A stretch of 40,815 bases of DNA. Origin: a virus. Taxonomy: Duplodnaviria > Heunggongvirae > Uroviricota > Caudoviricetes. The stretch covers positions 74,315 to 115,129 of IMG/VR virus record IMGVR_UViG_3300010282_000006. One strand, given 5' to 3'. This document shows positions 10,360 through 40,815 of this stretch, piece by piece (position 1 is the first letter of the stretch; each line of letters opens with the position of its first letter). The translations under genes were made by a program, and so were the position numbers. The notes beneath the pieces are model-generated. The model made no database searches. It worked only from the letters and a program-made list of their open reading frames with translations, and was not told where the DNA came from.

Positions 10360-11328
10360 ATGGCGGTGAAAAAGCAACTGAAAAAGACAGTTCCGAAAAT
10401 CAACAAAAACGCGAAGCCAAGCGACATCGTTCCGCAGACTGTTTCTGACGAGTCATACCGTTGCTCCTGCTGCGGGCATAAGTATCCGAAGCAGGAAGGG
10501 AATTTCAATGTTTCCAAATCCCCGATCTACAAAGGGAATAACGGCTATATGACCATCTGTAAGCGCTGTATCGGACAGCTTTTTGACCAGTACGTCGACT
10601 TTTTTGACAAGGATGAGGATGCTGCGATGGAGCGCATCTGCCAGATTACGGATATGTATGTGGACGATACGGCATGGGCGGCAAGCCGCAAGGTCAGCGC
10701 AAACCGCAGCCGTATGAGCGCGTATGTGTCCAAGCTCAATCTCAACCAGAGCACGGTCGGAGCGACATACGCGGACACGCTTTTGCGGCGCTGGGAGGAA
10801 GAGATCAAAAACGCGGAGAGTATTGAACAGGCGGCAAGGAACGGCGCGGACGAGGACGCTGCGCGTCGGTTCGGGCTTGGTTTTTCCGACAGTGATTACG
10901 ATGCGATGCAGGCGGAGTATGACAGTTGGGTGCAGAAGGAAGGAAAGCCCATCGACAAAAGACAGGAAGAGCTTTATGTGACGATGTGCTTTCTGCGGCT
11001 CAACCTGCAAAAAAGCGTGCAGAACGGTAGCGCCGGCGTCGGCACTGTTGCAAATTCCTACAAGAGCTTTATCGAAGCGGCCACGACTGAGATCGAAGAT
11101 CGCAAGCGTCTTGCCGAGCAAGAGGCTGAGATGAAGCCGGTCGGTATGCTTTTCAAGACCATTGAGCAGTACACGCCCGCTGAGTTTTATAAGGACAAAA
11201 AGCTCTACGCAGATTTTGACCAGCTTGGCGAGTACATCGAGCGGCACATGGTTCGACCGTTGCGCAACCTTCTGACGGGAACGAAAGAGCTGGATAAGGA
11301 GTTCAGTCTTTCCGGAGCGGAGGAGTGA
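10360..11328 (+). CDS. putative terminase small subunit with N-terminal Zn-finger-like Cys pairs
   Basis: CSCCG...CKRC; directly upstream of and coupled to TerL; strong GGGAGGTG RBS. Confidence 0.5.
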   Translation: MAVKKQLKKTVPKINKNAKPSDIVPQTVSDESYRCSCCGHKYPKQEGNFNVSKSPIYKGNNGYMTICKRCIGQLFDQYVDFFDKDEDAAMERICQITDMYVDDTAWAASRKVSANRSRMSAYVSKLNLNQSTVGATYADTLLRRWEEEIKNAESIEQAARNGADEDAARRFGLGFSDSDYDAMQAEYDSWVQKEGKPIDKRQEELYVTMCFLRLNLQKSVQNGSAGVGTVANSYKSFIEAATTEIEDRKRLAEQEAEMKPVGMLFKTIEQYTPAEFYKDKKLYADFDQLGEYIERHMVRPLRNLLTGTKELDKEFSLSGAEE

Positions 11329-11333
11329 TCGTC

Positions 11334-13155: not shown

Positions 13156-14814
13156 ATGGCAGACAGGTCGAGATTTCGGTTGTTTGAGCCGAGAGGCGGG
13201 ACGAGAAAGCCGGACATAAGGACGGAGCAAAGCGCGAGCGAGGCAGCGCCGGCGTCTGGCGGAGAGGTCAATTCCTTCGGCGCGTGGGTGAACATCAACG
13301 TGGATCGCATGGGCGGCGAGCAAGCGCCGTTCTCGCCGGAGGAGGTTACGCGCATGGCGCAGAACCCGACTTTGTATATCAGAGAGCTTCGCGCGTGGGC
13401 GAAGTGGGCGTATTACGCCAACGGCACGGTGACGAACGCCATCGACAGCTTGGAGACGCTGCACTCGCTGGACTATATTGTGGTGACGAAGCCTAAGCGG
13501 GAAAACGTGCCGTGCGGAAAGACGCGACAGCAGCGGGACAAGATGGAGTCCGTGCTGCGCGCCATCCGCTACAAGGAGGTCATCCGCAACGCTATTCACC
13601 AAGAGGTGAACGACGGTATGTACGTCGGCTATGTGGAGACGCGGCGTGTGAGCGTCGACAAGCGCATGGCGCTGACGGACGAGGACATCCGCAGCATATC
13701 AGAGATCAGCGAGAGTGGCGTCAACACAATGGTTTTCACGCTTCCCGTCGACTATGTGCGGATCATCGGACGGCGAAACAACTGCTATGAGGCCGCGTTT
13801 GACCTGCGGTATTTTGATCAGTTTTCCGAAGATGAGCGGAAGCTGCGGCTGCGGAGCTTTCCGAAGCAGATTCAGGACGGTTGGGAGAAGTATGCAAGCG
13901 GCGTATATCAGAACGGCGAGTGCTGGCTGCGTCTCGACTGGCGCAAGACGATCGTTGTCAAGATCAAAAGCGGCGTCAACGATCCGTATGGCATACCGTT
14001 TGCTGTGGCGGCGCTCGACGACATCGACTACGCCAACTACTTCACCAAGACGAAGCGACACGTTCTCGACACGGTGAACAACCAGATCTACTACGAAACT
14101 TTCCCGGAGGGAAAGGACAAGGGAACGAGCGCGCTGACGGATAAGCAGCAAAAGGCGCAGCACAACACCGTCAAGGGCGCTCTGACAACGCGCAGCGAAA
14201 ACGGCGTGAGTTTCTTTTCGCTTGCGGCTGGTACAAAGATGGAGCGGCTTCCGGTCGATGTCGACATTCTTGACGAGGAGAATGACAACGGCATCAAGGA
14301 TAAGGTAAACGACGGAATCGGCTTTTCCTCTGCCGCGCTGGGCGGCAGTTCGACCGGCAACTATGCCACGGCGTCGCTTAACCTTGAGGTCATATCCGGT
14401 AAGGTGTTCACATGGATCGAGGCGATTGTCGAGGAGCTGAATAAGTGCCTGAGTTATGGTGTGATGAAGGATGCGGATTATCGCGTTGAGTTCCGTGTGC
14501 TGCCGATTACGTTCCTCAACCGCGAAAAGCAGATCAAGGTTTTTTCCGACCTGTATGCGCGCGGGAAGGGAAGCCTTTTGGCGTGGATTGCCGCGAGCGG
14601 CGTGAACGCGGACGACTATCTGACGTTGATGGATTATGAGCTGGATGAAGATTTTGAGAATCGTTATCCGGTTCACAAGACGTCATTCACCGTTTCTGGC
14701 AAGGACGCGCCGGACGACGACGTGGATAAGAGCCACGCTGGAGCGGAACAGAATCCCAGCACGGAGAGCACCACGGAGAACGACGGAAATTCGCTCCCGT
14801 CTCCCAATTCGTGA
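13156..14814 (+). CDS. portal protein
   Basis: 552 aa, follows TerL; PYGIPFAVAAL and FSLAAGTK portal-like segments, acidic low-complexity C-tail. Confidence 0.75.
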   Translation: MADRSRFRLFEPRGGTRKPDIRTEQSASEAAPASGGEVNSFGAWVNINVDRMGGEQAPFSPEEVTRMAQNPTLYIRELRAWAKWAYYANGTVTNAIDSLETLHSLDYIVVTKPKRENVPCGKTRQQRDKMESVLRAIRYKEVIRNAIHQEVNDGMYVGYVETRRVSVDKRMALTDEDIRSISEISESGVNTMVFTLPVDYVRIIGRRNNCYEAAFDLRYFDQFSEDERKLRLRSFPKQIQDGWEKYASGVYQNGECWLRLDWRKTIVVKIKSGVNDPYGIPFAVAALDDIDYANYFTKTKRHVLDTVNNQIYYETFPEGKDKGTSALTDKQQKAQHNTVKGALTTRSENGVSFFSLAAGTKMERLPVDVDILDEENDNGIKDKVNDGIGFSSAALGGSSTGNYATASLNLEVISGKVFTWIEAIVEELNKCLSYGVMKDADYRVEFRVLPITFLNREKQIKVFSDLYARGKGSLLAWIAASGVNADDYLTLMDYELDEDFENRYPVHKTSFTVSGKDAPDDDVDKSHAGAEQNPSTESTTENDGNSLPSPNS

Positions 14815-24821: not shown

Positions 24822-25358
24822 ATGAAGGCAATGTCAATCAGCGAGGCGCTTAGATATGCGAATCAGAAGATCCGTCCGATGGTCAACGACGCATTGGGCG
24901 GGGAAGTCCTTGATACCGTCGCCGAGGTTGAGCACGCGAAGATCCAGAGTGAAGTGTACGACAAGCACAAGCCGAAGCATTACAAGCGGCGCGGCGATCG
25001 CGGCGGCCTTTCTGATATGGAGCACAATCTTGCAATCAACAACGCATCACTCAAGCTCGGCGCGTTGTATGTTGAGAACGTGACACCGCCCAATCCGTTC
25101 AACAACGGCGTCGGCGTGCGACCAATCGACGGTGTAGGCGGGTACTCATCGACAACTCCGGATGAGCCGATTGCCGGACTTGTTGAGCGTGGAACCTACA
25201 ATCCGAACGGGTACGGATACGATTACTGGTCTGATGCGTTTGCCAGACCGTTTATCGCGAAGACGCGCGCGGCGCTGCGCGGCGGGAAAGCGCAGAAAGC
25301 GCTTGCGGACGGACTCAGACGGAATGGTCTGACGGTTATTACTAAGAAAGGACGGTGA
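24822..25358 (+). CDS. putative neck/tail component (HK97 gp10-like)
   Basis: YKRRG..GGL and RPFIAKT motifs; coupled to TMP. Confidence 0.4.
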   Translation: MKAMSISEALRYANQKIRPMVNDALGGEVLDTVAEVEHAKIQSEVYDKHKPKHYKRRGDRGGLSDMEHNLAINNASLKLGALYVENVTPPNPFNNGVGVRPIDGVGGYSSTTPDEPIAGLVERGTYNPNGYGYDYWSDAFARPFIAKTRAALRGGKAQKALADGLRRNGLTVITKKGR

Positions 25359-28300
25359 TGAGCTTGGCTGAAAATGACGATCTGATGATAGTGGTAAGGA
25401 CGCGGCTGGAGGCTGACGAGGAAGCGTCGGCACAGCGAATTTCGGCGCAGCTTCCGTCCATTGCGGCAAAAATCAACGAGAAGAGCAGCATCAAGGTCGG
25501 TGTGACGCTGGATGAGCGCAACACCGACAGGCTGCAAAACAGCATTTCCCAGCAGCTTTCGCGCATACATGTCGATCCCGTCAATATTGGCATCAAGGTA
25601 ACGGGTGATGCAAAGAAGATGCTGCGAGAGGCAATGGCCGGCAGCGGTATCGACGAGAGCTCCGAGCTGATGAAGTCCATGACGAAGAACCTCACCGGCA
25701 TGGATGTGCAGGTCGGTAAGATCCATGCGCAGTGGGTGAAGGTGGGAAGGCAAAAAGAGCGGCTGCTACAGCTCGACATCTACGGGCGCGATGCGCTTGG
25801 TAAAGAAGTTCTGCTGATGCAGCAGTATGCGCAAAACGGGCGCAAGGTTGATGAGCAGGTAAAGGACGTCACGTTGAATATTGATAAGCTCAACAGACAG
25901 TCCGAGCAGGCGGCGAGAAAAGAACAGCGCGACAACGAAAACCGCCTCAATTACATTCGCGCGCAGAGCGACGCCCTTGAAAAACTTAAGGCGCAGTATT
26001 TGTCGCCGAAGGACGGTCTTCACGGAGAGAATCTGGAGAGCGCCGAGTCGCAATATGCGAAAATATCTGCGAGGCTTGATGAGCTGCGCGCAAAGAACGG
26101 CGCGTTGACGGACGAGGAAAAACGCGGCATTGACGGCGTTATCGCCGAGATGCAGCGCGAGATACAGACCATGAAGCAGGTGGAGTCCGTCGAAGAGAGC
26201 GCGGCGCGCAAGTCAAAAAGTGAAAATGACGCGCGCGTGGCTTCGCTTACCACGTTGTCGTCAAAGCTGGATGCCGTACAGAAGAAGTATCAGGGCTTGA
26301 CCGGCGTGAAGGGCGTGCAGGGTGAAGGCCATCTGAGCGAGCTGAACCGGAAGTATCAGGAAATCTTTGATACGATTACGCGGTTGCAAGGTGCAACTGG
26401 CGCGCTGAGCCAGACGCAAAGGACGGAAATTGACGCGCAGATCAAAGAACTCGACAGGCTAAGCGATCAGTATTACCGTGTTGAGCATGTGGCGACGCAG
26501 CTTCGCACCAAGAATGTCTGGGAGGTCAATTCCGATTATGCGAATGAGCTGGACGTCTACGCGAAGAAGCTGCAAACGTCCGGGCTTTTGACGAAGGATT
26601 TTGAAGAACGTATCGCCTCGCTTCGCAATCAGCTTTCAACCGCGTTTGACAGCAAGAGCCTGACCGACTTTGCAGATCAGTTTGACCGCTTGAAGGGCGC
26701 GGTCGGATCGTTCAAGGCCGGACAGGAGCTTGAGGCGACGATCGGGCGCATCAACAGCGAGATGGCGGTCATGCCGTCTCAGTTCCAGGCGGCGGAAAGA
26801 CGTCTTGAAGGCATAATTCATCCAACCGAAACGCTTGAGGCGAACATGAGGCGGCTTCGGGATCTTTCGGCGCAGGTCAACAGTGAGCAGGACGCCAACC
26901 GCAAGATTGAGGCGTACAACCGGCTGAAACAGACGCTTGCGCTGGTAAATACCGAGATGGCGGCGCTGACGCGAACGCAGAATACTGGACTGCGCGACGA
27001 GAAGCTGACGGCGAATTTGGAGAAGGCGAAGGCGGATCTTCTGACGGTCGGAAGAACGTGGAGCGCGCTCAAGGCTGACAAGGGACTGAATTTGCAGTTT
27101 GAGCAGCTTTTGGCGAATCTCGACCGCGTGAACAATGCCGGAGATCTTTCCAAGTGGCGCGCGGAGTTCAACGCCTTTAAGAGTGAGGTCAAGGCTGCCG
27201 GAAAGAATGTGCAGTCGCTTGGTGACATCCTCAAGAACAACCTTGGCAAGGTTTTGCAGTGGGTGAGCGCAACAACGCTTTTATTCCGTGCGATAAGGTA
27301 CTTGCGGCAAGGCATCCAGACGGTTGTTGACCTTAATACCGCGATGATCGACCTACGCAAGGTGACGAAGGCAACCGGCGAAGAGTACGAGGCGTTTTAC
27401 CGCCAGTCGAATGAGACGGCAAAGCAGCTCAATCTGACGACGCAGGAGGTCATTTCGCAGACGGCCGAGTTTGCCCGATTGGGATATGCACTTGAGGATG
27501 CCTCGAAGCTCGCGCAGAACGCAGCAATCTTCAAGATGGTCTCTCCCGGCATGAGTCAGGAGACGGCGGTTGACGGACTTATCAGCATCGTCAAGGCGTA
27601 CGGCATTGAGGTCGAAGACACAATGGATGGCATCATCTCGAAAATCAACGAGGTGGGTAATAAGTTTGCCGTCAGCAACAACGACCTCGTTGAGGTGATG
27701 ACGCGCGCGTCGAGCGCGATGTCCGCAGCCAACAATACGTTTGAGGAGACCGTTGCGCTTGCGACGGCTGCTATTGAAATCACGAGGGACGCCGCCACGA
27801 CGGGCAATGCCCTGAAGACGCTTTCCATGAGGATTCGCGGCTACGACGAGTCCACGGAGGAATATTCCGAGGACGTTGCCGTTCTGACCGGCAAAATCGC
27901 CGATCTTACAAAGGTCGCAGGGAATGGCGGAAAGGGCGTGAGCCTCTTTGAGGTAGGTGATCCCAACACATATCGTTCGACCTACGCGATCTTGCAGGAC
28001 ATCGCGGCGATCTGGGACGAGTTGACAGACAAGAACCGCGCGCAACTGCTGGAAGCTCTGTTCGGTAAACGTCAGGCGCAGGTTGGCAGCGCGATCCTTT
28101 CCAACTTCTCTCAGGCAGCCGACGCGATGGACAAGATGGCGGACAGCGCAGGAAGCGCCGAGCGCGAGATGGCGAAGGTTATGGAGAGCGTGGAGTACCG
28201 CGCGAACGCCCTCAAGGAAACTTGGGTAGGCATTGCGCAGAATATATTCCAGAGCGACGATTTGAAGCTGGGGATTTCCCTTCTCCAGACTATCTCCAAT

Positions 28301-28396
28301 GTTATTGATACGCTGACCGACAAGCTGGGATTGCTTGGCACGGTCGGCATCGCGGCGACTATCGCGTCTTTGCGTAAGTTGAACGCGACGGCGGGT
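25355..28396 (+). CDS. tape measure protein, exon 1 (1014 codons; unspliced frame reads on to stop at 28471)
   Basis: Long coiled coil plus TMP core (FEETVALATAAIEITRD..GNALKTLSMRIRG); ends at U of the P1 U.G pair. Confidence 0.85.
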
Positions 28397-28609
28397 GAAC
28401 CCAAAGTGACGGGTTTCATGATTGCGCCCGCCTATACCCCGGTGGCGACACGGAACGAGCTTGCGGCATGACCGCAGGCAAGGGGGTATTGGAAAAACCG
28501 ACGAACATGGCTCCGCGTGGAGCTGCGAGTTTAGATCATTCTCGCACGGGAAGCCCGAAAGGGTAATCCGCAGCCAAGCTCATTATACAAGCAGTCTCAT
28601 AAAACAGAA

Positions 28610-28999: not shown

Positions 29000-29683
29000 C
29001 TAAAATCTACATCCACAGTTGTTGCATTTCCACGTTTTGCCTATGTCACCGGCTCCAAAAATGCCAAAGGCGTAGACCTTGAGAAAGCTGCCGGTCTTGG
29101 AGATTTTCGTCAGACTGGTAGAGCGGCAATAAGGGCAGGTAGGGATGTTGGCTGCAGGTTTTGGTACGGCGGTTGAAATCGGTTTCCATGTCGAACGATC
29201 AACCAGATCCTTGACGGGTGCTGGAGGTTCGCGCGGGGGAAGGTCGCGAAGAGAGCGGCTACGGTTGAGCTGACCGTATAAGTCATTTAGGTGAGCTTTG
29301 TATTCTTGAGACAATTTATCGCCGATGTTGCGAGGAAAAATCAGTTGCTCAAAATGATCCGCTTCTTTTTCCAAAACGCCGCTCGACTCTGATTGCGGCA
29401 AGTCGATTTCAACGTATGGCGCGTTGCAGTTACACATTGGCTTGCCATTTTTGCTTGGCTGAGCCTCGTTGTAGTAATACTCTCTCGCGCATTTGGCGCA
29501 GACCTTGACACGCGGCTCCTTTGATGAAAGCTGGAACATTGCAACCTGCGACAGAAGTTTTTGGTGGTAGTCGCTTTGCTCCTTCTGCTTGAGATGGTTC
29601 GCAATCGGAAAGCCGCAGTGCGGACAGGACACCGCTGCGGAAGACACTTGCTGATTGCACTCAGGACACACGATAAGCGCCAT
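29000..29683 (-). CDS. triple zinc-ribbon protein (antisense, inside intron P9 region)
   Basis: CPEC..CPHC, CAKC..CNC, CPYC..CNNC; AAAGGAG RBS 10 nt before ATG 29683. Confidence 0.8.
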   Translation of the reverse strand: MALIVCPECNQQVSSAAVSCPHCGFPIANHLKQKEQSDYHQKLLSQVAMFQLSSKEPRVKVCAKCAREYYYNEAQPSKNGKPMCNCNAPYVEIDLPQSESSGVLEKEADHFEQLIFPRNIGDKLSQEYKAHLNDLYGQLNRSRSLRDLPPREPPAPVKDLVDRSTWKPISTAVPKPAANIPTCPYCRSTSLTKISKTGSFLKVYAFGIFGAGDIGKTWKCNNCGCRF

Positions 29684-29713
29684 AAACCACACGCTCCTTT
29701 CTGCTTGCTATGG

Positions 29714-29742: not shown

Positions 29743-29784
29743 CGATAATCTTCGTATTGATCACACGAGGGTTGGGATGGATTG

Positions 29785-32700
29785 GCAATTATGCCCGTTG
29801 TGGAAGCGCTTCGAGCAACGCAAATTGTTTACGATGACACCATTGCGGCACAGGCGACGTATGCTACACAGCTTACAAGTCTGGATGTTGTTCATCAAAA
29901 AGCGGTGCTGAGCCAGATGAACCTCAACAGTACGCAGCGTGAAGCTATTTTGAATTTTGCAAAGTTGTCAGCCGCAGGACAATCTTATACCGTTGGCACT
30001 TTGGCGTTGGCAGCGGGTGTTGATAAGGTTAGGCTTGCCGAGTCTTTACAGCTTGCCGAGACCGAGCAGTTGACGGCAGAGACGATCGCGTGCGCTGTTG
30101 CGACTGGAGCGCTTCGTGGGGAAGATGCGCAGCTCGTGATTCAGTTTTTGACACATAAGGCGGCGACGGACGGCGTGACAGCATCGACGAATCTGATGAA
30201 CATGTCGCTCAAGGAGACCGCCGCGCTGATGTTGGCGACTCCTATGGGCTGGATCACCATGCTCACCATGCTTATCCCGCTGCTCATTACCGCAGCCAAG
30301 AAATTCAAGGAGTTGTATGACGCGGCGCATCCGACACTTCAGCAGATGCAGGACGACCTTGGTGATGCAGAGAATGAACTGGACGAACTGGATGGCAAGC
30401 TGGACGAGAACAAAAAGCGGATCGCGGAGCTTCGCGCACTGCGCGATGGAGGCACGATTTCCATTGTGGAGAGTGAGGAGCTAAAGCGGCTCGAACGCGA
30501 GAACGAGCTTCTTACCCAGCAAATTCAGCTTCAGAAAGACCTGATTGCCGCGAGGCAGAATGACATTTATACGAAGGCTGCAGAGGATGCGGGCGCATGG
30601 CTCAGTGACAGCGGCTACGAGATCAAAGGTCATGGCAACTCTGAACGGCAGGAGCAGGCGTACACCGGCGCTGGCGGCCTTTCTGCAGCAATTAACGACT
30701 ACAAGACCGCCAAGGCTGCATTCGATCAGGCGGTTGCTAACGGAGCTGCCGCTGCGACGGACGCTGAAAAGAAGAAATTCAAAGAAGCCGCAGACGAGTA
30801 CAAGGCGTCTATGGAAACCGCGCTTGCGCGTATGGTCGATTTGCAGGACGAGGCAATCAAGCTGCGCAATGCGCTCAATCCGGACGATCCGGAATCCGCA
30901 GGGCTGATTCGAGAACTCGATCTCGCGCTTGACCGCATTGCTGTGCTGCAAGATCCTGAATCTGCGCGCAACTCCATTTTCGGTCGCTTCTTTGAAACGG
31001 AAGCAGACCTCACCAACGAGAAAATCGCTGAGTTCAACACATATCTCAGGGAGCTCGGCCTGATTACGGAGGACATCCCGAAGGACGAGCTTGCCGATAT
31101 GCTCAGAAACACAGGCGATGCAGCGGAGGACGAGGCGGACAAAATCAAGGGGCTTATCGACGTGCTCGATAAGTTTGGCGTCGAGTCCAAAGAAATCTAT
31201 GCGCACGGCGGCAACGTGGATCTTCTTGACCGGCGCGTGGTGGAAGTCACCAACGCCAACCTCGGCAAGGTTCAGACGCACGACGCCAACGCACAGGTCG
31301 GCGACCGCATGACGGTGCTCTCGAAGACAATTCAGCACGGTGACGCCGCGCTGGTTGTGACGCCGATTCTCCCGAATGGCGAAATTTTGTCCGACGCAGA
31401 GCTTGACAAGTATGTCGAAAAGGTCGTTAAGGCGGCAAAGAAGGACAAGAGTACCAACTATCAGGCATACGACCAGAATGGTGTCTTTCTCGGTGTGTTT
31501 GGCGATCACGCCACATTTGAAAAGAACAACGAGGAAGCAGAGCGGTTTGCCGAAAGGCTGCATGATATCCATGAGGCAATTCTGGAGGCCGGAAGCGGCA
31601 GCGAGCTTTCCGAGCTGGTTGCGGAGCTGCAAGACCTGACGGAGTACACTCCGAGCGTTTCGACGTTGGCGGAGAAATTTGCCGACGCCGAGGGCAAGGT
31701 TGAAAAGCTCGGCAAGGCACTGCAGGAGTTCGGCAAGGAAGGTTCGATTGCAGCGGACACACTCGCTGAAATCGGCAAGGACTTCGGCGATTATGAGAGC
31801 TATGAAAAATTTGCCAAGGTGCTGATGGACTCCACCTCTACGATGGAGGAGGCGCAGGCGGCGGCTGACGCGCTGGCAAGCGAGTTTATGAACTCGACGA
31901 CGGCGCTTGACATGCTGCGCGAGGGCAATGCCGATCTTGTGAAGGCGATGCTCGAAAAGATTGGCGTGACGAACGCGGATGAAGTTGTGGAATCCCGCCT
32001 GCGGATCGTGCGGTTGGAAGCGAAGGTCGCGGCGCTGGGCTTGGCGGACGCCGAGTGGAGCGTTGTCGAAGAGAAGCTGCGCGAGATCGGCGTGACCAAT
32101 GCGGACATTACCGCGATTGAAGCATTGCGCAAAAAGCAGATTGAGGCGAAAATCGCCACAACCGATTTTGCAACTGCGAACGCAAGCACAATCGCTACGC
32201 TCATTCAGATGGCAAATGCCGCTGGCATTGCCGGAAAGCGGATGGAGATCCTTGCGCAGATGCAGCGTGTTGAGGCGTCTGAGACAGATAAGACGTCCGC
32301 TCGTTATGGCGCATATATGGCAGATGCAAAGAGGCGGCTTCTGGAGGGCTTCACTGACGATTTGAAGGTGGAGTTGCCAGAAATCAAGGTCGTTGTGCCG
32401 AAGGCCAACGGTTCCGGCAGCGGCTCCGGAAGCGATTCTTCCAAGAAGGAAACGGAAAAGTATTTCGCCGAGATCGACCGCTTCCGCGATGCGGTCAAGC
32501 GGCTTGCAGATGCGCAGGAGGAAGCGGAGAGGCTGAACGGCGAGCTTGGGCGCACGGAAGGTCTGTGGGATCAGGTCAAGATTCACAAATCTCTCGTGGA
32601 CACCTACGAGAACGAGCAGACGGCGTTGCACGATCTCAACGAAGAGCGCCGCAAAGCGATTCGAGAAGGGGTCGAGAAGCTGCAAAATCTTGGCTTTGAC

Positions 32701-34785
32701 GTCATCTATGACGCAGAGACCAACGACCTCTTCATCAATAACCTTGAACATCTCAACGATCTTGCCACGACGGATCTCAACAAGTACGAGACGATGGCTG
32801 ACATGTCCGTCAATATTCTCGGTCAGTACGACAACGCCCAAGAAGCGACCAACGGACTCATCAAGGACACCGAGGGCATCATCGACAACATCACCAAGTT
32901 CAACGACGCCAACAAGGAAGGTTCGGAGACGTGGTGGGAGAGACGCGACGCCATTCATGCGTCGAAACAGAGCATCATCGACGATCTTAAACAGATCACG
33001 GAAAACGCGCACGACGCGGTGGATGAAATCCAAAACGTCTATGACACGCTGCACGCGGCGGCAGATGAGTTTGCGGCAAACGACGGCTATTTGACCATTG
33101 ACACCTATCAATCCATTTTGCAGCTTGGCACGCAGTATATGGCGTATCTTTACGATGAAAACGGTCTTCTTGTCATCAACGAAGAGCGTATTCAGGCTGT
33201 GATTGCGGCAAAGACGGAACAGCTTGCGCTGGAACAGGCGCTCACCTATGTGGATCGGCTGAGACTGGCGCTGGAAAAGGGTTCTATTGAAAATCTGAAC
33301 GAGCTGCTGTATGCGACGCAGGATGCGACCGATGCGACATGGGATTTGGTGTACGCCAACCTTAAACTGCTCGATTTGTCGGATGATCAGTTTGCGGCGG
33401 CGATGCACAACATCAATGCGATTCGCTCGCTTGCGGACGCTGCGGTTGCCGGAATCGGAAAGAGCGCCGGAGCGTTTGCCGACTCGCTCAATGAGATGAA
33501 GGACGGGTTGGACAGTATCCTTCGGTACACGATGGATATGCTCAGGCAGCGGATCGAGGATCAGATCGACGCGCTTGAGGAGCAGAAAAGCGCCTACGGC
33601 GATTTGATTGACGCGCAGAAAGAAATGCTGCGCAATACCAAGAATCAGAACGATTATCAGAAATCGGTTGCGTCCAAGCTCAAGGAGATGGCGAAGCTCC
33701 AAAAGGAGATCGCCTCTTTGACAACGGCGGCGGAATCAGGAGACCGAAGCGCGGCTGCGAAGCGCGCGAAGCTCCAAGAAGAGCTTGCCGAGCTGAGCGA
33801 GGATCTTGCGGACGAGCAGAACGAGCACGCTATCGAAGTAGCCGAGAAAGCGCTTGACAAACAGCAGGCAGCTTTTGAGGCGGAGAAGGATGACGAGATC
33901 AAGACGCTACGAAATAGTATTTCTTCTCAACAGAAGCTCTACGATATGGCAATTAGCTATATTGAAAGCCGTTGGGACAAGCTCTATGGTGAGCTGATCG
34001 ACTGGAACACTGAGTACGGCAGCGACCTCAACAGCGATATCGCGTCCGCATGGGACAAAGCGTATGAGGCAGCAGAGCGATACGGAAGCTATGTAAGCGC
34101 GCTGGGAAGCATTGACGCGGACATTGCCGCAACGAGCGGCGGAAACAGAGGAAATACCGCCACTGGCGTTAATACTGCTGTCGGCAGGACGAGCACTTCT
34201 GGCAATGAAGCGATGGCGACGGCATGGGTCGAGCAGATGAAAGCGAACAGCGCGGCGTGGCACAGCGCGAGCGATAAGCGCAAGGCTGATTTGGCTGCTG
34301 AAAACAAGCGTATCGCTAAAGAGGAGCTTCCGGAATGCGGCGTAATCGCAGACATCGGAGACGACGGTGTGTGGTATCTCAAAAACGGGAAGAGGCTCTA
34401 CGACGTCTATCACAGCGGCGGAATCGTTGGCGGTGACGCTTCGCTTAAGCAGGACGAGCTGTTCGCAAAGCTCCAAAAGGGCGAGATGGTCTTATCGCGT
34501 GAAATGGTAGATCGGATGATCCGGCACTTTGATATGCTCAAGAAGCTGGGGGAGTCCATTGCGAGCCGACCGATGGACGGTCGGCTGCTTGCGCAAGATC
34601 TTGCAGCGCTTGGCATCGGCAAGACGGTGAATAACGTGACGAGCAACGAGAGCAGCCGGCCTGTGAGCATCGTGTTTGGCGATACGCATATCAGCGGTGC
34701 GGATAAAAGTACGGTTCAGCAGCATGTGATGCTTACCGAAGGTATGAAGAAGGAAATCGCGCGTTGGCTTGGTTTCCGTATGTAG
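29785..34785 (+). CDS. tape measure protein, exon 2 (1666 aa; spliced product ~2680 aa)
   Basis: No RBS before the ORF-track start; helical/coiled-coil sequence; C-terminal YHSGGIVG..KGEMV TMP motif; in frame with exon 1 after splicing. Confidence 0.85.
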   Translation, partial: AIMPVVEALRATQIVYDDTIAAQATYATQLTSLDVVHQKAVLSQMNLNSTQREAILNFAKLSAAGQSYTVGTLALAAGVDKVRLAESLQLAETEQLTAETIACAVATGALRGEDAQLVIQFLTHKAATDGVTASTNLMNMSLKETAALMLATPMGWITMLTMLIPLLITAAKKFKELYDAAHPTLQQMQDDLGDAENELDELDGKLDENKKRIAELRALRDGGTISIVESEELKRLERENELLTQQIQLQKDLIAARQNDIYTKAAEDAGAWLSDSGYEIKGHGNSERQEQAYTGAGGLSAAINDYKTAKAAFDQAVANGAAAATDAEKKKFKEAADEYKASMETALARMVDLQDEAIKLRNALNPDDPESAGLIRELDLALDRIAVLQDPESARNSIFGRFFETEADLTNEKIAEFNTYLRELGLITEDIPKDELADMLRNTGDAAEDEADKIKGLIDVLDKFGVESKEIYAHGGNVDLLDRRVVEVTNANLGKVQTHDANAQVGDRMTVLSKTIQHGDAALVVTPILPNGEILSDAELDKYVEKVVKAAKKDKSTNYQAYDQNGVFLGVFGDHATFEKNNEEAERFAERLHDIHEAILEAGSGSELSELVAELQDLTEYTPSVSTLAEKFADAEGKVEKLGKALQEFGKEGSIAADTLAEIGKDFGDYESYEKFAKVLMDSTSTMEEAQAAADALASEFMNSTTALDMLREGNADLVKAMLEKIGVTNADEVVESRLRIVRLEAKVAALGLADAEWSVVEEKLREIGVTNADITAIEALRKKQIEAKIATTDFATANASTIATLIQMANAAGIAGKRMEILAQMQRVEASETDKTSARYGAYMADAKRRLLEGFTDDLKVELPEIKVVVPKANGSGSGSGSDSSKKETEKYFAEIDRFRDAVKRLADAQEEAERLNGELGRTEGLWDQVKIHKSLVDTYENEQTALHDLNEERRKAIREGVEKLQNLGFDVIYDAETNDLFINNLEHLNDLATTDLNKYETMADMSVNILGQYDNAQEATNGLIKDTEGIIDNITKFNDANKEGSETWWERRDAIHASKQSIIDDLKQITENAHDAVDEIQNVYDTLHAAADEFAANDGYLTIDTYQSILQLGTQYMAYLYDENGLLVINEERIQAVIAAKTEQLALEQALTYVDRLRLALEKGSIENLNELLYATQDATDATWDLVYANLKLLDLSDDQFAAAMHNINAIRSLADAAVAGIGKSAGAFADSLNEMKDGLDSILRYTMDMLRQRIEDQIDALEEQKSAYGDLIDAQKEMLRNTKNQNDYQKSVASKLKEMAKLQKEIASLTTAAESGDRSAAAKRAKLQEELAELSEDLADEQNEHAIEVAEKALDKQQAAFEAEKDDEIKTLRNSISSQQKLYDMAISYIESRWDKLYGELIDWNTEYGSDLNSDIASAWDKAYEAAERYGSYVSALGSIDADIAATSGGNRGNTATGVNTAVGRTSTSGNEAMATAWVEQMKANSAAWHSASDKRKADLAAENKRIAKEELPECGVIADIGDDGVWYLKNGKRLYDVYHSGGIVGGDASLKQDELFAKLQKGEMVLSREMVDRMIRHFDMLKKLGESIASRPMDGRLLAQDLAALGIGKTVNNVTSNESSRPVSIVFGDTHISGADKSTVQQHVMLTEGMKKEIARWLGFRM

Positions 34786-34800
34786 AACCGATGAAAAATA

Positions 34801-34826
34801 GCGGATGCGTCAAACGACGCATCCGC
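34801..34826. terminator. perfect 11-bp hairpin between TMP and Dit; T run only on the minus strand
   Basis: GCGGATGCGTC-AAAC-GACGCATCCGC preceded by AAAAATA. Confidence 0.5.
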
Positions 34827-34849
34827 ATATTGCGGGAGGTGAGAAAGGA

Positions 34850-35632
34850 ATGTATCGGGCTTATGACTTTACATTTGCCGGTGTGTCTGCGAGTATGTAC
34901 GGAATGTATGTTGCTGACATTGGAAACAAGAAGCACGGCGACCACAGCTTCGGCAACGTCGCCAACATCGTTGAGACGAGAATTGCAAACCGTGTGACGC
35001 CAATCCATTATGGCGTGCGCTATCACGACGAGCCGCTGACGTTCACGCTCATCTTCGGAGCGGACAGGGTTCTCGACCGATATGAGCTGCAGGAGATCTC
35101 CAAATGGCTCACCGGCTATCAGGAATATCAATGGCTGAGTATTGACCAGCCAGACTTGGAACACATTCAGTTCCGCTGTCTGGTCGAGAGCCTGACGCCA
35201 ATCAGCATGAAATGGATGCCGATGGCATTTGAGGCAAAAATCGTGTGTGACTGCCCTTATGGGTACAGCTATCCGTTTGAGAAAACGTATGTCATCCACG
35301 AAGAGACCGCTGTTCTGTTCTACAATGACGGCAGCAGCCGAGTACCTTTGAAGCCTATAATCGAGGTTTCGCTTGCGCAGGGCTGCACAGAGCTGACCAT
35401 CACCAATCATACAACGGGCGAGACTGTCCGATTTTACGATTTGCCGAGCGGCGGCATTTCTTTTGTCGTTGACAGCGAGAATGAGGTGGTGGCCGCAGAA
35501 GATGTCACAGATATCTACGAGTGCTTCAACTATGTGTTTCCGTCGTTTGTGGCGGGTGACAACAGATTGACAATCACGGGAGACGGCATAGTAAAGCTGA
35601 GCGGACGTTTCTTGTATAACGTTGGCGCGTGA
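34850..35632 (+). CDS. distal tail (Dit)-like protein
   Basis: Follows TMP; YDFTFAG, EISKWLT, CDCPYGY, GDNRLTITG pattern. Confidence 0.75.
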   Translation: MYRAYDFTFAGVSASMYGMYVADIGNKKHGDHSFGNVANIVETRIANRVTPIHYGVRYHDEPLTFTLIFGADRVLDRYELQEISKWLTGYQEYQWLSIDQPDLEHIQFRCLVESLTPISMKWMPMAFEAKIVCDCPYGYSYPFEKTYVIHEETAVLFYNDGSSRVPLKPIIEVSLAQGCTELTITNHTTGETVRFYDLPSGGISFVVDSENEVVAAEDVTDIYECFNYVFPSFVAGDNRLTITGDGIVKLSGRFLYNVGA

Positions 35633-35644
35633 GGAGGGGATGGC

Positions 35645-38600
35645 ATGTATCTCGATTATTCTAAGCTGAAAAGCGGGGAGATCAGGCAGCCCGTTCTGCG
35701 CCTGAAAACGATGGCAGGGAAAACGCTCGGCGCAATTCCATACGTCCACAATCTGAAGTTTGACATTCGATATGCGGACATCAGCGAAATGGAGTTTGAG
35801 GTTCCCTATCTGCAAAACGGGAAAATCAACCCGCTCTATCAGGCGATTACTGGTTACAAGGTTGTTTACACGGACGACCTTGGTATCTATATTTTGGCAA
35901 CTCCGAAGAAAAGCGGCAACGGTTTGATGGAGACAAAGACCGTGCATGGTTATTCGCTGGAAAAGTTGTTTGAAAAGAAACGCCTGTTTTTGGAGGAGGG
36001 AACCTACAATTTCTGGAATCCGGACGATCCGGATGATACGGTTTTGGGACGCATCCTAGAAACAGACAGAACATGGCATCCCGGCTATGTCGATCCGAGG
36101 CTGATTGGCTGCTACCGTACTTTCGACCAGTATGACAGCGACCCGCTGACGTTCTGCTACAGTAACGCGGCAGAGAAATATCAGTGCGTTGTGGTGTTTG
36201 ACGTCTACGACAAGATGATCAACGTCTACGATGCAAGCAAGAGCGGCGGTACGCTTCCAATCTATCTGAGCCACCAGAATCTTGTGGATACGGTGGACGT
36301 TGAGGAGCAGACGGACGAGCTGGCAACCAAGCTGCGCGTCTACGGCGCTGACGATTTGAGTATCTGGGACGTGAATCCTACCGGCGCGGATTATCTGATC
36401 AATTTGGACTACTTTATCTCCAACGGAGAATTGGACGTGCGGCTGGACGGCGCAGAGAAAACTCTTGCAGATCGCGTGAAGGAGTGGGAAGCCGGCATTC
36501 TTCTGAAGCAGACGTATTATACGAGGCTTGTGGCTGCGCGCGCGTCCAAAATAGCGCAAAAGCTCTCTGCTGAAGCGGAACTGACCGAGTTGAATGGTGA
36601 TATGGATGCGCTGTTGGCGGCGCAGAGCGCTATTATCCAAGCATATTCGCTGGAGGATACAAAAGCGGGACGAGACGACCAGCAAGAGGTACTGGACGCA
36701 AAAAACGATGAAATCACCGAAAAGAAAAAAGACATCCGAGATAAAGAAGCCGAAATTAAGACGCTTCAGGACGAGATCGACGAAGATACGACAGACATAC
36801 AGAGCGTTCACGATGAGCTTGGATTCACTACGTTCTTTTCAGAGAACGAGCAGACAGTGCTCAACCACTATTTGATCGAAAGCGAGGTCTCCGAGGAGAC
36901 TTTTGTTGCGTCCGATGTGGAAGCGTCCGCTTCCGGCGAGCTGAGCACGATTTCCGGAGTCGTTCAGATCGAGCAATCCAAAATTGAGAGGATCGACGAA
37001 GCGGAAACGGGAATATATGTGTTTAGCGGCGGACGCCTGCGGGTGGTAGAAGCGGGCATCACGGCGGACATCGTGCGTGGCACGATGGAGGAAGACGCCG
37101 ACGCACACACCTATGTTCTGACGCTGTATCTCGGTGCGACAACGCATGGTGAGAACGACTACCAAAGCGGAACGCTTACTGTGTCCGGCAGATATACACA
37201 GATTTCCAGTGATATTTCAGCCGTTACCGTGGATGGTGTGACGACCTATCAAGGAGAGTGTATTGAGCTTTCTGTTGAAGAGAGCAAGGCTTTTTTCACA
37301 GTAAATGTCAACGATTATCAGAAGTATTCCGTTGCGCGCGAGCTGTACGATTTCGGCGCGGGTGTTCTGGAGGAAAAGGCGTGGCCGGTCTACGAGTTTT
37401 CGATCAGCAGTGCGAACTTCTTGTTTCAAAAAGAATTTGAACCGTTTAAGGATGAGCTGAGGCTTGGCAGAGGAGTCCATCTGAATCTCGGCAGCGACGG
37501 CGTAGTTACGGCAAATATCATCGGCATATCTTTGGATTTTGAGCATCCGGAGGAATTTGCGCTGATCTTTTCTAATCGGTTCCAAAGCATTGACCAAGTG
37601 AGAAGACCAATGAGTGAGCTTAAACAATATGGTGCTTCCAGCCGCAGCTTTGACGCGAATAAGTACATTTATAACCGCGCAGCGAGCAAAAGCACGCAGG
37701 TGTCGCGTTTTATGGAGAGCCAGATCAATGCTGCGGTCAACTCAATTCGCGCGGCGAACAACCAGAGCGTTTTAATCGACGGTGCCGGCATTCATATTGG
37801 CGGAGAGTCTGATGTTCAGGTGCGCATGATCAACGATATGATCGCTATGTCAGATGATAACTTCCAGACGGCAAAGGTTGCCATTGGCCGCTTTGCCAGT
37901 CCGGAAACCGGCGTGCAATTCGGCGTTAATGCCGAGGTGATTGCGGGTAAGCTCTACGTCGGGCACAATCTGATCCTTGAGAACACCAAGGACGACGGTA
38001 CGATGATGTTCAAGGTGGATGCGACTGGCGCATGGCTCTACAACGCTCCGTATGTCATGCAGAGCGATCACGGAGGTGAACTCGTAATTCACCCTGATTA
38101 CGGACTTGCAGCCGGAACGGGGAACCTGTTTACGACGAGCGGTACTACGGTGATTCCTGCGTTTATCGACTCGAACGGAGATGTCGAGTTGGACAGCGAT
38201 GGGATGCCGAAAAACGCGAACTTCTATCTGGATGCACGCGATGGAAGCGCCTATTTTCGTGGCAAGGTGATTGCGACGAGCGGCGTGTTTAATGGTGTCG
38301 TAAAGGCAAGCGATTTCCAGTTGAAGAGCGGCGAAACCTTCACGAGTATCCTGAACGCGGCGAAGAACGCCATCACTGGAGATTATATAGAAAGCCTGAC
38401 AGCCGATAAGATCACGGCGGGAACCATTGACGCGAATGTTGTCACCATCAGCAATTTGGTTGTCGGGAGCAATGTCGCAATGGGGGAGAACGCCACTATT
38501 TCGTGGAGCAATGTAACAGGGAAATCTGCTGTAACCAATGCTATTGCCAGCGCACAGGATGCGGCGAACAGCGCCGCCAGTGACGCTGCATACGCTGAAC

Positions 38601-38995
38601 AGCTTGCGAAAAAGATTGCAAACGGAACATACAGCGGTGGAACGTTTATCAGCGGAAAGACAATCTATTCCCCTGAGATAGTCGGAGACGAAATTTCTGT
38701 CAAAGGCGGTAAGTTCCATGTGTATGACAGCAACGGAACCGAATTTGGCTATATCGGTCGTGCGCATGGAGCGATCTCTTCTACCGAAAAAACAAACGGC
38801 ATCGCAATGTCAACTGTCAATATTGCTGAGATAGAGCATGACACCGTTGGCAATTATGTCATTGTCACAACTGCTGGTGTGAGAATGCACTCCGGGAGCA
38901 ATATCGACCTCTACCTCACTCCGTCCGGTGCTTATTACAAAAACAGCTCCGGCGATACAGTGGAGATTGGCGGGAATACGGCGACATTTGGATAA
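35645..38995 (+). CDS. tail-tip/Tal-like minor structural protein (host recognition)
   Basis: 1116 aa after Dit; N-terminal Tal-like region (ATKLRVYG), central coiled coil, C-terminal beta-rich repeats (ADKITAGTIDA). Confidence 0.7.
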   Translation: MYLDYSKLKSGEIRQPVLRLKTMAGKTLGAIPYVHNLKFDIRYADISEMEFEVPYLQNGKINPLYQAITGYKVVYTDDLGIYILATPKKSGNGLMETKTVHGYSLEKLFEKKRLFLEEGTYNFWNPDDPDDTVLGRILETDRTWHPGYVDPRLIGCYRTFDQYDSDPLTFCYSNAAEKYQCVVVFDVYDKMINVYDASKSGGTLPIYLSHQNLVDTVDVEEQTDELATKLRVYGADDLSIWDVNPTGADYLINLDYFISNGELDVRLDGAEKTLADRVKEWEAGILLKQTYYTRLVAARASKIAQKLSAEAELTELNGDMDALLAAQSAIIQAYSLEDTKAGRDDQQEVLDAKNDEITEKKKDIRDKEAEIKTLQDEIDEDTTDIQSVHDELGFTTFFSENEQTVLNHYLIESEVSEETFVASDVEASASGELSTISGVVQIEQSKIERIDEAETGIYVFSGGRLRVVEAGITADIVRGTMEEDADAHTYVLTLYLGATTHGENDYQSGTLTVSGRYTQISSDISAVTVDGVTTYQGECIELSVEESKAFFTVNVNDYQKYSVARELYDFGAGVLEEKAWPVYEFSISSANFLFQKEFEPFKDELRLGRGVHLNLGSDGVVTANIIGISLDFEHPEEFALIFSNRFQSIDQVRRPMSELKQYGASSRSFDANKYIYNRAASKSTQVSRFMESQINAAVNSIRAANNQSVLIDGAGIHIGGESDVQVRMINDMIAMSDDNFQTAKVAIGRFASPETGVQFGVNAEVIAGKLYVGHNLILENTKDDGTMMFKVDATGAWLYNAPYVMQSDHGGELVIHPDYGLAAGTGNLFTTSGTTVIPAFIDSNGDVELDSDGMPKNANFYLDARDGSAYFRGKVIATSGVFNGVVKASDFQLKSGETFTSILNAAKNAITGDYIESLTADKITAGTIDANVVTISNLVVGSNVAMGENATISWSNVTGKSAVTNAIASAQDAANSAASDAAYAEQLAKKIANGTYSGGTFISGKTIYSPEIVGDEISVKGGKFHVYDSNGTEFGYIGRAHGAISSTEKTNGIAMSTVNIAEIEHDTVGNYVIVTTAGVRMHSGSNIDLYLTPSGAYYKNSSGDTVEIGGNTATFG

Positions 38996-39022: not shown

Positions 39023-39322
39023 ATGAACTATCCTGTTGAATTGGCAAAGGATGACTGTAACGAGCTTGAGCGGCTTCACTACATGGTGGAAGCAAGAGCG
39101 CACCTTATACAAAGACTCATCACTGGAGCGACAAATCCCAAAGAGGCTGATTTGGTTATTGACAGATACCTGTCGGAATACGACAAATGCTTCAAGGAAT
39201 ACGATAAGGTCAAAAGTCGGCTCGAAGCCAAGTATAAACCGTCTGAGTATGCGGAAACAGCGAAGTCCTGGACTGTTGACTTCAACACCGGCGTTATGAC
39301 ATTCGAGGTGGCGGATGCTTAA
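39023..39322 (+). CDS. CXXX-repeat peptide modification system accessory protein (putative)
   Basis: 99-aa helical protein coupled to the radical SAM gene, as in CXXX-repeat maturase loci. Confidence 0.55.
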   Translation: MNYPVELAKDDCNELERLHYMVEARAHLIQRLITGATNPKEADLVIDRYLSEYDKCFKEYDKVKSRLEAKYKPSEYAETAKSWTVDFNTGVMTFEVADA

Positions 39323-40619
39323 AGATAGAGGCGATTTCGCCGAGGAGATCATGAGGATTTTCCCAGAGGAATCGCCGTCTGGTGAGCCGAAATCTGTTTT
39401 GACATTCACATTTCAGGTCACGACAGACTGCTCGCTGTGCTGTACCTATTGCTACCAGACCAACAAGGGGCATGAAATGATGACATGGGATGTTGCGAAG
39501 GCTGCGATCGACTATGCTTTCGACTCCGCGAACGACCACGATTCCATATTTTCCTACGATTTCGTTTCTGGCATCATTGTTGATTTCATTGGTGGAGAAC
39601 CGCTGTTGAACATTGATTTGGTCACGCAGATTATTGATTATTTTGAGGAACAGCTTGTTTTGCGTGATAGCCCATGGTTGTTCAAACACAGATACAGCTT
39701 CAGCACAAACGGCGTTGCTTATTTCGACGACAAGGTTCAAAGTCTGTTGGCGAAATATGGCGATCTGATTTCTATGGGTGTGACTGTAGACGGGCATAAG
39801 GAGCTGCATGATAAGTGCAGGGTGTTCTGCAATGGTCATGGCAGCTACGATCTCGCAATCAAAGCGTCTTTGGATCAGAAGAACCGCTTTGGTAACGACT
39901 CGACAAAGATTACTCTTTGTCCAGAGAATATTGACGAGACTTCGCGTGCGATTATTCACATGCTGAACCTCGGATACAGATATATCCATGCAAACTGTGT
40001 TTTCGAGGAAGGATGGGAGCCCGTCCACGCGAGGACACTTTACCAAGAGATGAAGCAGATTGGTGACTACATCCTTGATAATGACTTGGAGGATTCCTGC
40101 TATGTCTCTCTGTTTGGCGAGAATGATTTTTCTCCGCTGACGGATGAGGATACGAGTAACTGGTGCGGTGGCGTCGGATCTATGATTGCAGTTGATTATA
40201 AAGGAGACTTCTATCCATGTATCCGATATATGGAGTCTTCCATTGGGAAAGATCGGAAGCCGTTGATTATCGGGAACATTCATGACGGCGCGTACAAAAC
40301 GGCGAAAACCAAGAAAATCAAAGAGGCATTTTCCCGCGTAACCAGACAAAGCCAATCCGAGCAGAGTTGTATTGATTGCCCGATCGCAAGCGGTTGTGCA
40401 TGGTGTTCGGGATACAATTATCAAAAGTACGGAACGGTCAACAAGCGCGCAACGTTTATTTGTGTAATGCACAAAGCGAGAGCACTTGGAAGCTGGTACT
40501 ATTTCAAAAAAGAAGCGAAGAAAAAAGGAGCAGACCACAAAATTGAATTATTCTTACCAGAGAATGACGCCATAGCGCTCATCGGAGAAAAAGAGTGGTC
40601 GTTCTTATGCAACGTATAG
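39315..40619 (+). CDS. radical SAM/SPASM peptide maturase, CXXX-repeat target family
   Basis: CxxxCxxC (CSLCCTYC), FIGGEP, SPASM cysteines WCGG..YPC..CIDCPIASGCAWC..FIC. Confidence 0.85.
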   Translation: MLKDRGDFAEEIMRIFPEESPSGEPKSVLTFTFQVTTDCSLCCTYCYQTNKGHEMMTWDVAKAAIDYAFDSANDHDSIFSYDFVSGIIVDFIGGEPLLNIDLVTQIIDYFEEQLVLRDSPWLFKHRYSFSTNGVAYFDDKVQSLLAKYGDLISMGVTVDGHKELHDKCRVFCNGHGSYDLAIKASLDQKNRFGNDSTKITLCPENIDETSRAIIHMLNLGYRYIHANCVFEEGWEPVHARTLYQEMKQIGDYILDNDLEDSCYVSLFGENDFSPLTDEDTSNWCGGVGSMIAVDYKGDFYPCIRYMESSIGKDRKPLIIGNIHDGAYKTAKTKKIKEAFSRVTRQSQSEQSCIDCPIASGCAWCSGYNYQKYGTVNKRATFICVMHKARALGSWYYFKKEAKKKGADHKIELFLPENDAIALIGEKEWSFLCNV

Positions 40620-40632
40620 GAGGTGAGTGAGA

Positions 40633-40815
40633 TTGGCGTGTTCTCGATGCGCAGATTCCTGCACAACCGGATGTCAGAACACCTGCTACGGAGGTTGTAG
40701 TAGTACCTGCAAAGGTTCCTGTTCAAACACCTGTGGTATCAACTGCGGCAGCGGATGTAGCGGAACATGCTCCTCTTGCTCTGCGGCAGGAACGTGTTCG
40801 ACCGGTTGTAGTAGT
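40633..40815 (+). CDS. Cys-rich CXXX-repeat precursor peptide/protein, 3'-truncated by window edge (not in ORF track)
   Basis: AGGAGG RBS 40618-23, TTG start; MACSRCADSCTTGCQNTCYGGCSSTCKGSCSNTCGINCGSGCSGTCSSCSAAGTCSTGCSS: 15 Cys in 61 aa, 11 at exact 4-residue spacing. Confidence 0.85.
   Translation, partial: MACSRCADSCTTGCQNTCYGGCSSTCKGSCSNTCGINCGSGCSGTCSSCSAAGTCSTGCSS

Follow-up and report, generated by a model that had tools for sequence, protein, structure and literature searches.

Closest Described Systems

The closest described counterpart of the genes considered here is the CXXX-repeat maturation system catalogued in NCBIfam/TIGRFAMs, a three-gene set comprising a radical S-adenosylmethionine (SAM) peptide maturase (TIGR04115), a CXXX-repeat target (TIGR04114, also PF27846) and a CXXX repeat peptide modification system protein (TIGR04116), the families of which were defined in silico only and not by experiment. 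A cassette of this make-up, coding for a helper protein, a radical SAM/SPASM enzyme and a CXXX-repeat target, was found at the end of a stretch of viral DNA of 40,815 nucleotides (nt), hereafter the window, which takes up the final 40.8 kb of a provirus record in IMG/VR (IMGVR_UViG_3300010282_000006; 115,129 bases) and ends where that record ends. Its enzyme and full-length target passed TIGR04115 and TIGR04114, respectively, and TIGR04116 was the best match of the helper, which bears out the original prediction, made from the sequence without database searches, that the triad is a CXXX-repeat maturase system. Because the cassette type is already catalogued, it is not of a new kind. It differs from the catalogued families in having a helper below the family cut-off and a leaderless, two-domain target of 258 amino acids (aa), and both its gene order and the domain order of its target are minority forms.

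By score, the best characterized relatives of the enzyme were PapB of the PapB/PapA (freyrasin) system, the SCIFF maturase and CcpM, PapB being the nearest. Ranthipeptide and sactipeptide maturases resemble the window enzyme in their SPASM architecture, and they act on substrates with repeated Cys motifs. Unlike PapB-type maturases, the window enzyme has no fused N-terminal recognition domain and is accompanied instead by a separate helper with another predicted fold, while its target differs from PapB-type substrates in the missing leader, the few acidic acceptors and the context of phage tail genes. QhpD, a radical SAM/SPASM enzyme which introduces cross-links into quinohaemoprotein amine dehydrogenase, in its gamma subunit, provides a precedent for Cys thioethers put into a protein that stays a structural subunit and is not released as a peptide. 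However, the links that QhpD installs are specific and few, its substrate is a small subunit, and it has no phage context, whereas the window ladder has 35 Cys.

Covalent hardening of a virion part is known from the HK97 capsid, in which isopeptide cross-links between capsid subunits form a self-made, autocatalytic chainmail; in the window phage, a dedicated iron-sulfur enzyme would do the work on a tail-gene-linked protein. The suggestion that cross-linked phage structural proteins as such would be new biology was therefore too broad, as HK97 cross-links itself, and the part that would be new is links installed by a radical SAM enzyme. In the literature library that was searched, nothing was found on the chemistry, role or phage context of CXXX cassettes, the one hit for TIGR04115 being a pig-microbiome paper without bearing on them.

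Position of the Cassette and Its Conservation in Tail Modules

The window cassette is read here as a phage late-operon copy of the CXXX-repeat maturation system that yields a modified, tail-associated protein, and this reading is given a probability of about 55%. The window is a phage late region with its structural genes on the + strand, and the order upstream of the cassette is tape measure, Dit, Tal-like gene and helper. The Tal-like tail-tip or minor tail protein (35645-38995, + strand; 1116 aa) matched phrog_6211 (minor tail, 4.9e-69), phrog_8704 (tail protein) and, weakly, PF06605 (Prophage_tail). Its stop codon lies 27 nt before the start of the helper gene, which overlaps the enzyme gene by 8 nt at the helper stop, and the enzyme stop is followed after 7-13 nt by the target start, depending on whether a GTG or a TTG is used. 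No terminator-like site was found between the Tal-like gene and the target; the first strong terminator was located on a sister contig (L004:7304-7325), five small genes past the target. The original prediction of three tightly coupled, same-strand genes directly after the tail-tip gene, with no intervening terminator, was correct in every detail that could be checked.

Related loci were gathered with an alignment of the enzyme, as a single enzyme sequence used as query gave no loci. In total, 160 loci were fetched, their open reading frames (ORFs) were called and clustered, and recurrent clusters were named by Pfam and PHROGs, with totals counted over 167 loci and dereplication into 88 groups of enzymes at 85% identity. 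With E ≤ 1e-30 as the limit, a first search gave 3914 proteins of the enzyme family, which was present in 529 or more IMG/VR loci and in 575 or more species genomes, the genomes being mainly those of Oscillospiraceae, Lachnospiraceae and other Clostridia, plus Bacteroidales. Cultured carriers of related cassettes include Neglectibacter timonensis SN17 (L106), Desnuesiella massiliensis mt10 (L096), Eubacterium pyruvativorans i6 (L097) and Anaerobacterium chartisolvens DSM 27016 (L123). A same-strand CXXX ORF was found near the enzyme in 153 of the 167 loci, and in the dereplicated relatives helper, enzyme and target stay together on the same strand. The target lies only downstream of the enzyme, giving the window's order of helper, enzyme and target, in 9 of the 88 groups.

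Baseplate, fiber or tape-measure genes were found beside the cassette in at least 49 of the 71 groups with 6 kb or more of upstream DNA, a lower bound since only hidden Markov models of recurrent neighbor clusters were counted. Recurrent upstream neighbors were Baseplate_J, Mu Gp48 / P2 I, a sheath initiator, the N-terminus of a tail-collar fiber, a YQBQ-like protein, tail-fiber phrogs and the tape measure. Moreover, the gene directly before the first CXXX gene was a tail-fiber homolog in 19 groups. Association with tail modules in relatives had been set beforehand as the test on which the original prediction could fail, and the association held. It extends over tails of different types, with myovirus-type baseplates in most relatives and a siphovirus-type set of tape measure, Dit and Tal in the window. 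This neighborhood of tail genes suggests that the cassette serves an enzyme-modified, tail-associated protein.

Radical SAM/SPASM Enzyme

The enzyme encoded at 39315-40619 (+ strand; 434 aa) scored 415.5 bits (E = 2.4e-124) on the NCBIfam model TIGR04115 (radical SAM peptide maturase, CXXX-repeat target family), for which the cut-off is 350, residues 30-396 aligning to profile positions 3-359 of 359; matches to PF04055, PF13353, PF13186 and phrog_1802 were also obtained. The adjoining CXXX-repeat gene, a trait of the TIGR04115 family, is present as well. The radical-SAM motif CX3CX2C (C39/C43/C46) and the SPASM cysteines C284, C302, C352, C355, C361, C364 and C383 were invariant in 17 homologs. 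Judged from these residues, the seven-Cys SPASM motif is one for two auxiliary clusters, and all cluster cysteines are present.

The enzyme scored below the cut-offs of the PapB family (NF047865, 160.9 bits vs. 340), the SCIFF maturase (TIGR03974, 107.9 vs. 425), CcpM (TIGR04068, 101.8 vs. 500), QhpD (TIGR03906, 90.5 vs. 453) and anSME (TIGR03942, 59.3 vs. 349). Its core begins at about residue 30, without the N-terminal part of 80-90 residues that was skipped in the alignments to the SCIFF and CcpM models.

CXXX-Repeat Target

The 5' part of the target gene (40627-40815, + strand) runs off the end of the contig. Its ribosome-binding site, GGAGG, was read from the sequence at 40620-40624 (+ strand), and translation starts at GTG 40627 or, more likely, at TTG 40633, which is 8 nt past GGAGG and was the choice of the gene caller on a sister contig (L004:4798). 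The two sister contigs, L003 and L004, encode an identical enzyme and both carry the complete target. The window was 100% identical to L004 over 4961 bases, up to position 40796, and the final 19 nt differ, which points to an assembly break inside the repeat. The contigs of two other relatives (L006 and L007, with enzymes 71% and 68% identical) likewise end about 190-200 bases into the CXXX repeat. Repeat DNA of this kind seems to break short-read assemblies regularly, so that targets would often be truncated or missed in databases.

With the sister contigs, the substrate could be read beyond position 40815. The full gene (L004:4798-5571) encodes 258 aa and passed TIGR04114 (PF27846) with 25.1 bits against a cut-off of 20, compared with 16.5 bits for the 63-aa fragment in the window. 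Residues 3-139 form a Cys ladder with 35 Cys, in which 31 of the 34 Cys-Cys gaps are exactly 4; the repeat is 25% Cys and rich in G/S/T/N, and the X positions are occupied by G, S, T, N, K and D. This spacing is far from chance. The ladder is followed, from about residue 143 to residue 258, by a Cys-free folded domain of about 115 aa. The first Cys is residue 3 with the TTG start, or residue 5 with the GTG start, and with two residues ahead of the first Cys the target has no leader peptide. In this it departs from precursors of peptides that are ribosomally synthesized and then post-translationally modified (RiPPs), in which an N-terminal leader precedes the modified core; a follower's part could be played by the C-terminal domain of 115 aa. 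Of the original view of the substrate, the C-x-x-x repeat of period 4 with small flanking residues stood, with K and D added to S, G, T and N; as a correction, the substrate is no short peptide but a leaderless protein with two domains. No dedicated protease, ABC exporter or immunity gene was recognized among the neighbors scanned with Pfam and PHROGs, several of which had no family at all.

Among relatives, CXXX ladders vary in length, reaching about 540 residues with about 100 Cys, and targets always keep a folded domain of about 105-115 aa. In a profile-profile comparison, the window's domain proved homologous to the N-terminal domain that CXXX proteins usually have (hhalign, with a probability of 94.8%, E = 5e-8 and 85 columns), indicating that a unit of domain plus Cys ladder is conserved, with its order reversed in the window phage. 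In most relatives the domain precedes the ladder, at the opposite end from that in the window, and the ladder-then-domain order was found in 5 of the 88 groups. The window target is therefore a permuted variant, of a form that is in the minority.

Among 1.84 billion representatives scanned in full with HMMER, 296 relatives of the domain were found at E ≤ 0.001. In most of the best 150 of these 296, the domain is C-terminal in proteins of 190-640 aa, the N-terminal parts of which are Cys-poor and look FN3-like by eye, from their first residues; a few of the relatives have Cys-rich stretches, of the CXXX type or another. By Pfam, P0141 was confirmed to have fn3 and P0136 showed it weakly, and there was no family match for P0131 or P0150. 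The contig of P0150 (L169) codes for a 609-aa protein ending in the target's domain, and this gene translates to the recorded protein only when TAG is read as Gln, which indicates a stop-codon-recoded phage.

No Pfam family covers the domain of the target. An AlphaFold2 (AF2) model built from a 50-row alignment, with a mean predicted local distance difference test (pLDDT) score of 88, consisted of three helices with long ordered loops between them. Its only good fold neighbors were two uncharacterized gut-phage proteins in BFVD, and the nearest Atlas clusters were viral. On the strength of its relatives, the domain is regarded as a phage-typical module, and it probably docks or oligomerizes the target.

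Helper Protein and Predicted Complex with the Enzyme

The first gene of the cassette (39023-39322, + strand) encodes the 99-aa helper. Its top NCBIfam match was TIGR04116, with colinear alignment of residues 6-91 to profile positions 4-87 of 90, and its score of 15.5 bits missed the cut-off of 50. BLAST linkage placed it in a family of 109 members found just upstream of the radical SAM gene in 50 of the 88 dereplicated groups. TIGR04116 was reached at E ≤ 0.05 by 10 of 49 aligned members of this phage-type helper family (best 1.1e-30), which indicates that the curated model is narrow and that phage helpers are divergent relatives of it. The window helper is accordingly described as a divergent TIGR04116 relative and is not filed as a member.

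In the AF2 model of the helper (pLDDT 93), a short strand and a long helical hairpin are followed by a beta-hairpin at the C-terminus, with which the sheet reaches three strands. A RiPP recognition element or PqqD-like domain is a winged helix with a substrate-binding, three-stranded sheet; fold searches with the helper model (Foldseek on the PDB, VIA-align) matched generic helical hairpins only, with a best Z of 8.0 and no PqqD-like match.

Modeling of the helper together with the enzyme gave a complex score of 0.85, compared with 0.00 for the best of three controls, and the runs shared at least 97% of contacts with partner pLDDT of at least 87. Of 80 solved complexes, 58 attained that mark, as did 2 of 110 mismatched pairs, a calibration that is approximate here as custom alignments were used. 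In the modeled interface, helper residues 13-45 (helix 1 and the hairpin turn) face the N-terminal tail of the enzyme (residues 2-16) and its surface helices 108-123 and 147-151, and the helper sheet stays free. The model thus supports predicted binding of the helper to the enzyme.

In one IMG/VR relative (L085:9692-11305) the helper is fused in frame to the N-terminus of the radical SAM enzyme in a protein of 538 aa. No such fusion was present among the 120 best enzyme homologs, and L085 was the only one found overall. A tandem pair of helper domains, 219 aa in length, is encoded at L100:9322-9978. Because of the L085 fusion and the missing 80-90-residue N-terminal part of the enzyme, and in line with the complex model, the helper may be a detached substrate-handling subunit.

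Proposed Function and Alternative Explanations

In the proposed mechanism, helper, enzyme and target would be translated, like the tail tip, from the late transcript. The helper would bind the N-terminal face of the enzyme, taking the place of the fused recognition domain of related maturases, and the enzyme, using its radical-SAM and two auxiliary clusters, would modify the 35 regularly spaced Cys. That the cysteines are the modified residues is probable. The likeliest chemistry, by analogy with the nearest characterized enzymes, would be links from Cys sulfur to carbon within or between neighboring CXXX units, and the chances that the product carries such thioethers are put at even. These links would turn a glycine/serine-rich thread into a stiff, redox-independent rod, the conserved folded domain would dock or oligomerize the ladder protein, and the product would end as a tail-associated part, such as a fiber, stalk or decoration, in phages of strict anaerobes. 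Our rationale is that thioethers would substitute for disulfides in a particle that is built in a reducing cytoplasm and released into the anoxic gut. From the position of the gene, a target residing in or on the virion is slightly favored. The complete scenario, in which phages of strict anaerobes use a radical SAM enzyme and a helper to staple a Cys ladder into a rigid, redox-independent rod of the tail (a fiber, stalk or receptor-binding decoration), is tentative.

Several observations weigh against a modified virion part. A CXXX repeat fused to a recognizable fiber domain was seen in none of the 167 loci, and Pfam and PHROGs gave no tail-fiber, baseplate or other structural family match for the target; a putative structural role is supported only by gene neighborhood. 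Fold searches with the target domain (PDB Foldseek, and VIA-align over 48,161 chains) were uninformative, the best hit being a designed filament with Z of 6.2. The slot after a fiber gene is also where fiber-assembly chaperones sit, which are not virion parts. With regard to the chemistry, the enzyme falls far under the cut-offs of every characterized thioether maker (PapB, SCIFF, QhpD) and weakly resembles anSME, an enzyme that oxidizes Cys rather than linking it, and the ladder holds few Asp/Glu acceptors of the PapB type (4 Asp). Lastly, one related Bacteroidota clade has small targets, about 100 aa long and with N-terminal parts of 50 residues, and no tail or phage genes nearby.

The explanation that survives best next to a tail-associated product is that the ladder protein is modified and made with the tail genes yet stays outside the particle, either as an assembly factor or scaffold for the neighboring fiber or tip, or as an intracellular or released infection factor (metal- or redox-active, or directed against host defenses). 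The position directly after fiber genes in 19 groups is the classical chaperone slot, as the chaperones of the P2 G / lambda Tfa type sit after the fiber genes in P2-like tail modules. Consistent with such a role, the target matches no structural family, and several small genes without a family follow it before the first strong terminator. However, very long and variable ladders of up to about 540 residues and 100 Cys, together with a dedicated iron-sulfur enzyme, would be costly for a transient helper. The docking-type domain is also shared with relatives having FN3-like N-terminal parts (by eye; fn3 by Pfam for P0141), and virion parts that are displayed typically have FN3/Ig domains. The nearest structure and feature neighbors of the domain, viral proteins of unassigned role, are neutral on this point. 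Overall, a product outside the particle is considered unlikely, at roughly one chance in four in our judgment of the locus.

Less probable still is RiPP-like cargo of the moron type, in which the ladder would be cleaved and released as a bacteriocin, signal or metal-binding peptide for the lysogen, independently of the tail. In its favor, the enzyme belongs to the peptide-maturase branch of radical SAM/SPASM proteins, with PapB as its nearest characterized relative, and the Bacteroidota clade offers a small-target form of the system away from phage genes. This clade was recovered in a quick tree with a support of 100 in the Shimodaira-Hasegawa-like approximate likelihood ratio test (SH-aLRT) and comprises 9 rows, 7 of them Bacteroidota; the remaining two are a Paenibacillus-labelled contig flagged as contamination and a metagenome chromosome. 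It looks like a cellular, small-peptide form of the system. Against release of the window's ladder as a peptide stand the absence of a leader, with the first Cys at residue 3, and the lack of any recognized protease, ABC exporter or immunity gene among the flanking genes scanned. In addition, the cassette is translationally coupled inside the late operon and carries no promoter-like or terminator-like signal of its own, its position does not change between phages with siphovirus-type and those with myovirus-type tails, and the target always retains its folded domain of about 105-115 aa.

In the Bacteroidales loci themselves (L150-L167), the targets often occur several in tandem, a second SPASM protein of 322 aa is present, and the 92-aa helper fits TIGR04116 well.

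A last alternative, which concerns the chemistry and not the location, is that no cross-links form and that the repeat, unmodified, binds metals or iron-sulfur clusters, or undergoes another reaction such as anSME-like Cys oxidation or epimerization; it would suit a composition of 25% Cys rich in G/S/T/N and an enzyme that misses the cut-offs of all characterized makers of thioethers and shows a low level of resemblance to anSME and other SPASM enzymes, but it is improbable, given that the best sub-threshold matches (PapB, SCIFF maturase, CcpM and QhpD) are all makers of Cys-to-carbon thioethers and that a strict period of 4 over hundreds of residues speaks more for a repeated enzymatic unit than for a metal site.

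Novelty and Significance

To the catalogued systems, the window adds a siphovirus-type context right behind the Tal-like gene and a leaderless target with permuted domain order. By homology, the target domain is also connected with a larger set of phage proteins, two with FN3 by Pfam (one weak), and the predicted helper-enzyme complex is a further element that the modeling supports.

If the product is indeed a modified virion part, it would represent a new class of post-translational chemistry in phage structural biology and, for a virus structural protein, the first cross-link that an enzyme installs by radical chemistry. RiPP machinery would then have been turned, by way of a separate helper, to a folded protein that lacks a leader, and a role would be provided for the thousands of unstudied TIGR04115 enzymes in prophages of gut Clostridia. 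For enzyme engineering, the cassette would be of interest as a route to long, regular thioether-stapled polymers. In annotation, tools for mining biosynthetic gene clusters likely assign such cassettes to the ranthipeptide or sactipeptide type, even though the tail modules of prophages are where most of them lie.

Flanking Genes and the Late Region of the Window

In relatives, endolysins often lie 3' of the cassette. A reverse transcriptase (PF00078) was found 3-5 kb downstream of it in 8 groups (e.g., L008:14797-16068), where its neighbor is a 760-aa protein without a family (L008:12110-14389); the reverse transcriptase may belong to a diversity-generating retroelement within the same module for host recognition. 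In giant Erwinia and Salmonella phages, two radical-SAM genes lie side by side, and one of them codes for a protein distantly related to the enzyme (about 24% identity); in Erwinia phage phiEaH2 (L170; NC_019929 62552-64793) this pair is located just downstream of an annotated virion structural gene and small hypothetical genes.

Five small ORFs without a family (108, 122, 67, 96 and 123 aa; L004:5579-7282) follow the target in the sister contig and precede the strong terminator. Beyond the terminator (L003:11466 onward) lies a gene for a 431-aa protein with repeated 'DDKD..TI.GAK.YAD' motifs and a virion-structural phrog, which is followed by a Gp80-like protein (PF23140, phrog_240) and a giant ORF of 2288 aa, residues 1-1333 of which had no Pfam match. 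The genes past the terminator are further structural-type genes.

Upstream in the window, the + strand late region contains a terminase-like gene (11325-13139) and the portal gene (13156-14814), a virion structural protein gene, the tape measure in two pieces (25355-28471 and 29782-34785; phrog_4211) and Dit (34805-35632; phrog_33), all on the + strand. The two tape-measure ORFs match separate parts of phrog_4211, at profile positions 450-946 and 2240-2612, and the roughly 1.3 kb between them hold an antisense ORF for a 230-aa zinc-ribbon protein (29003-29692, minus strand; PF10571/PF13240).

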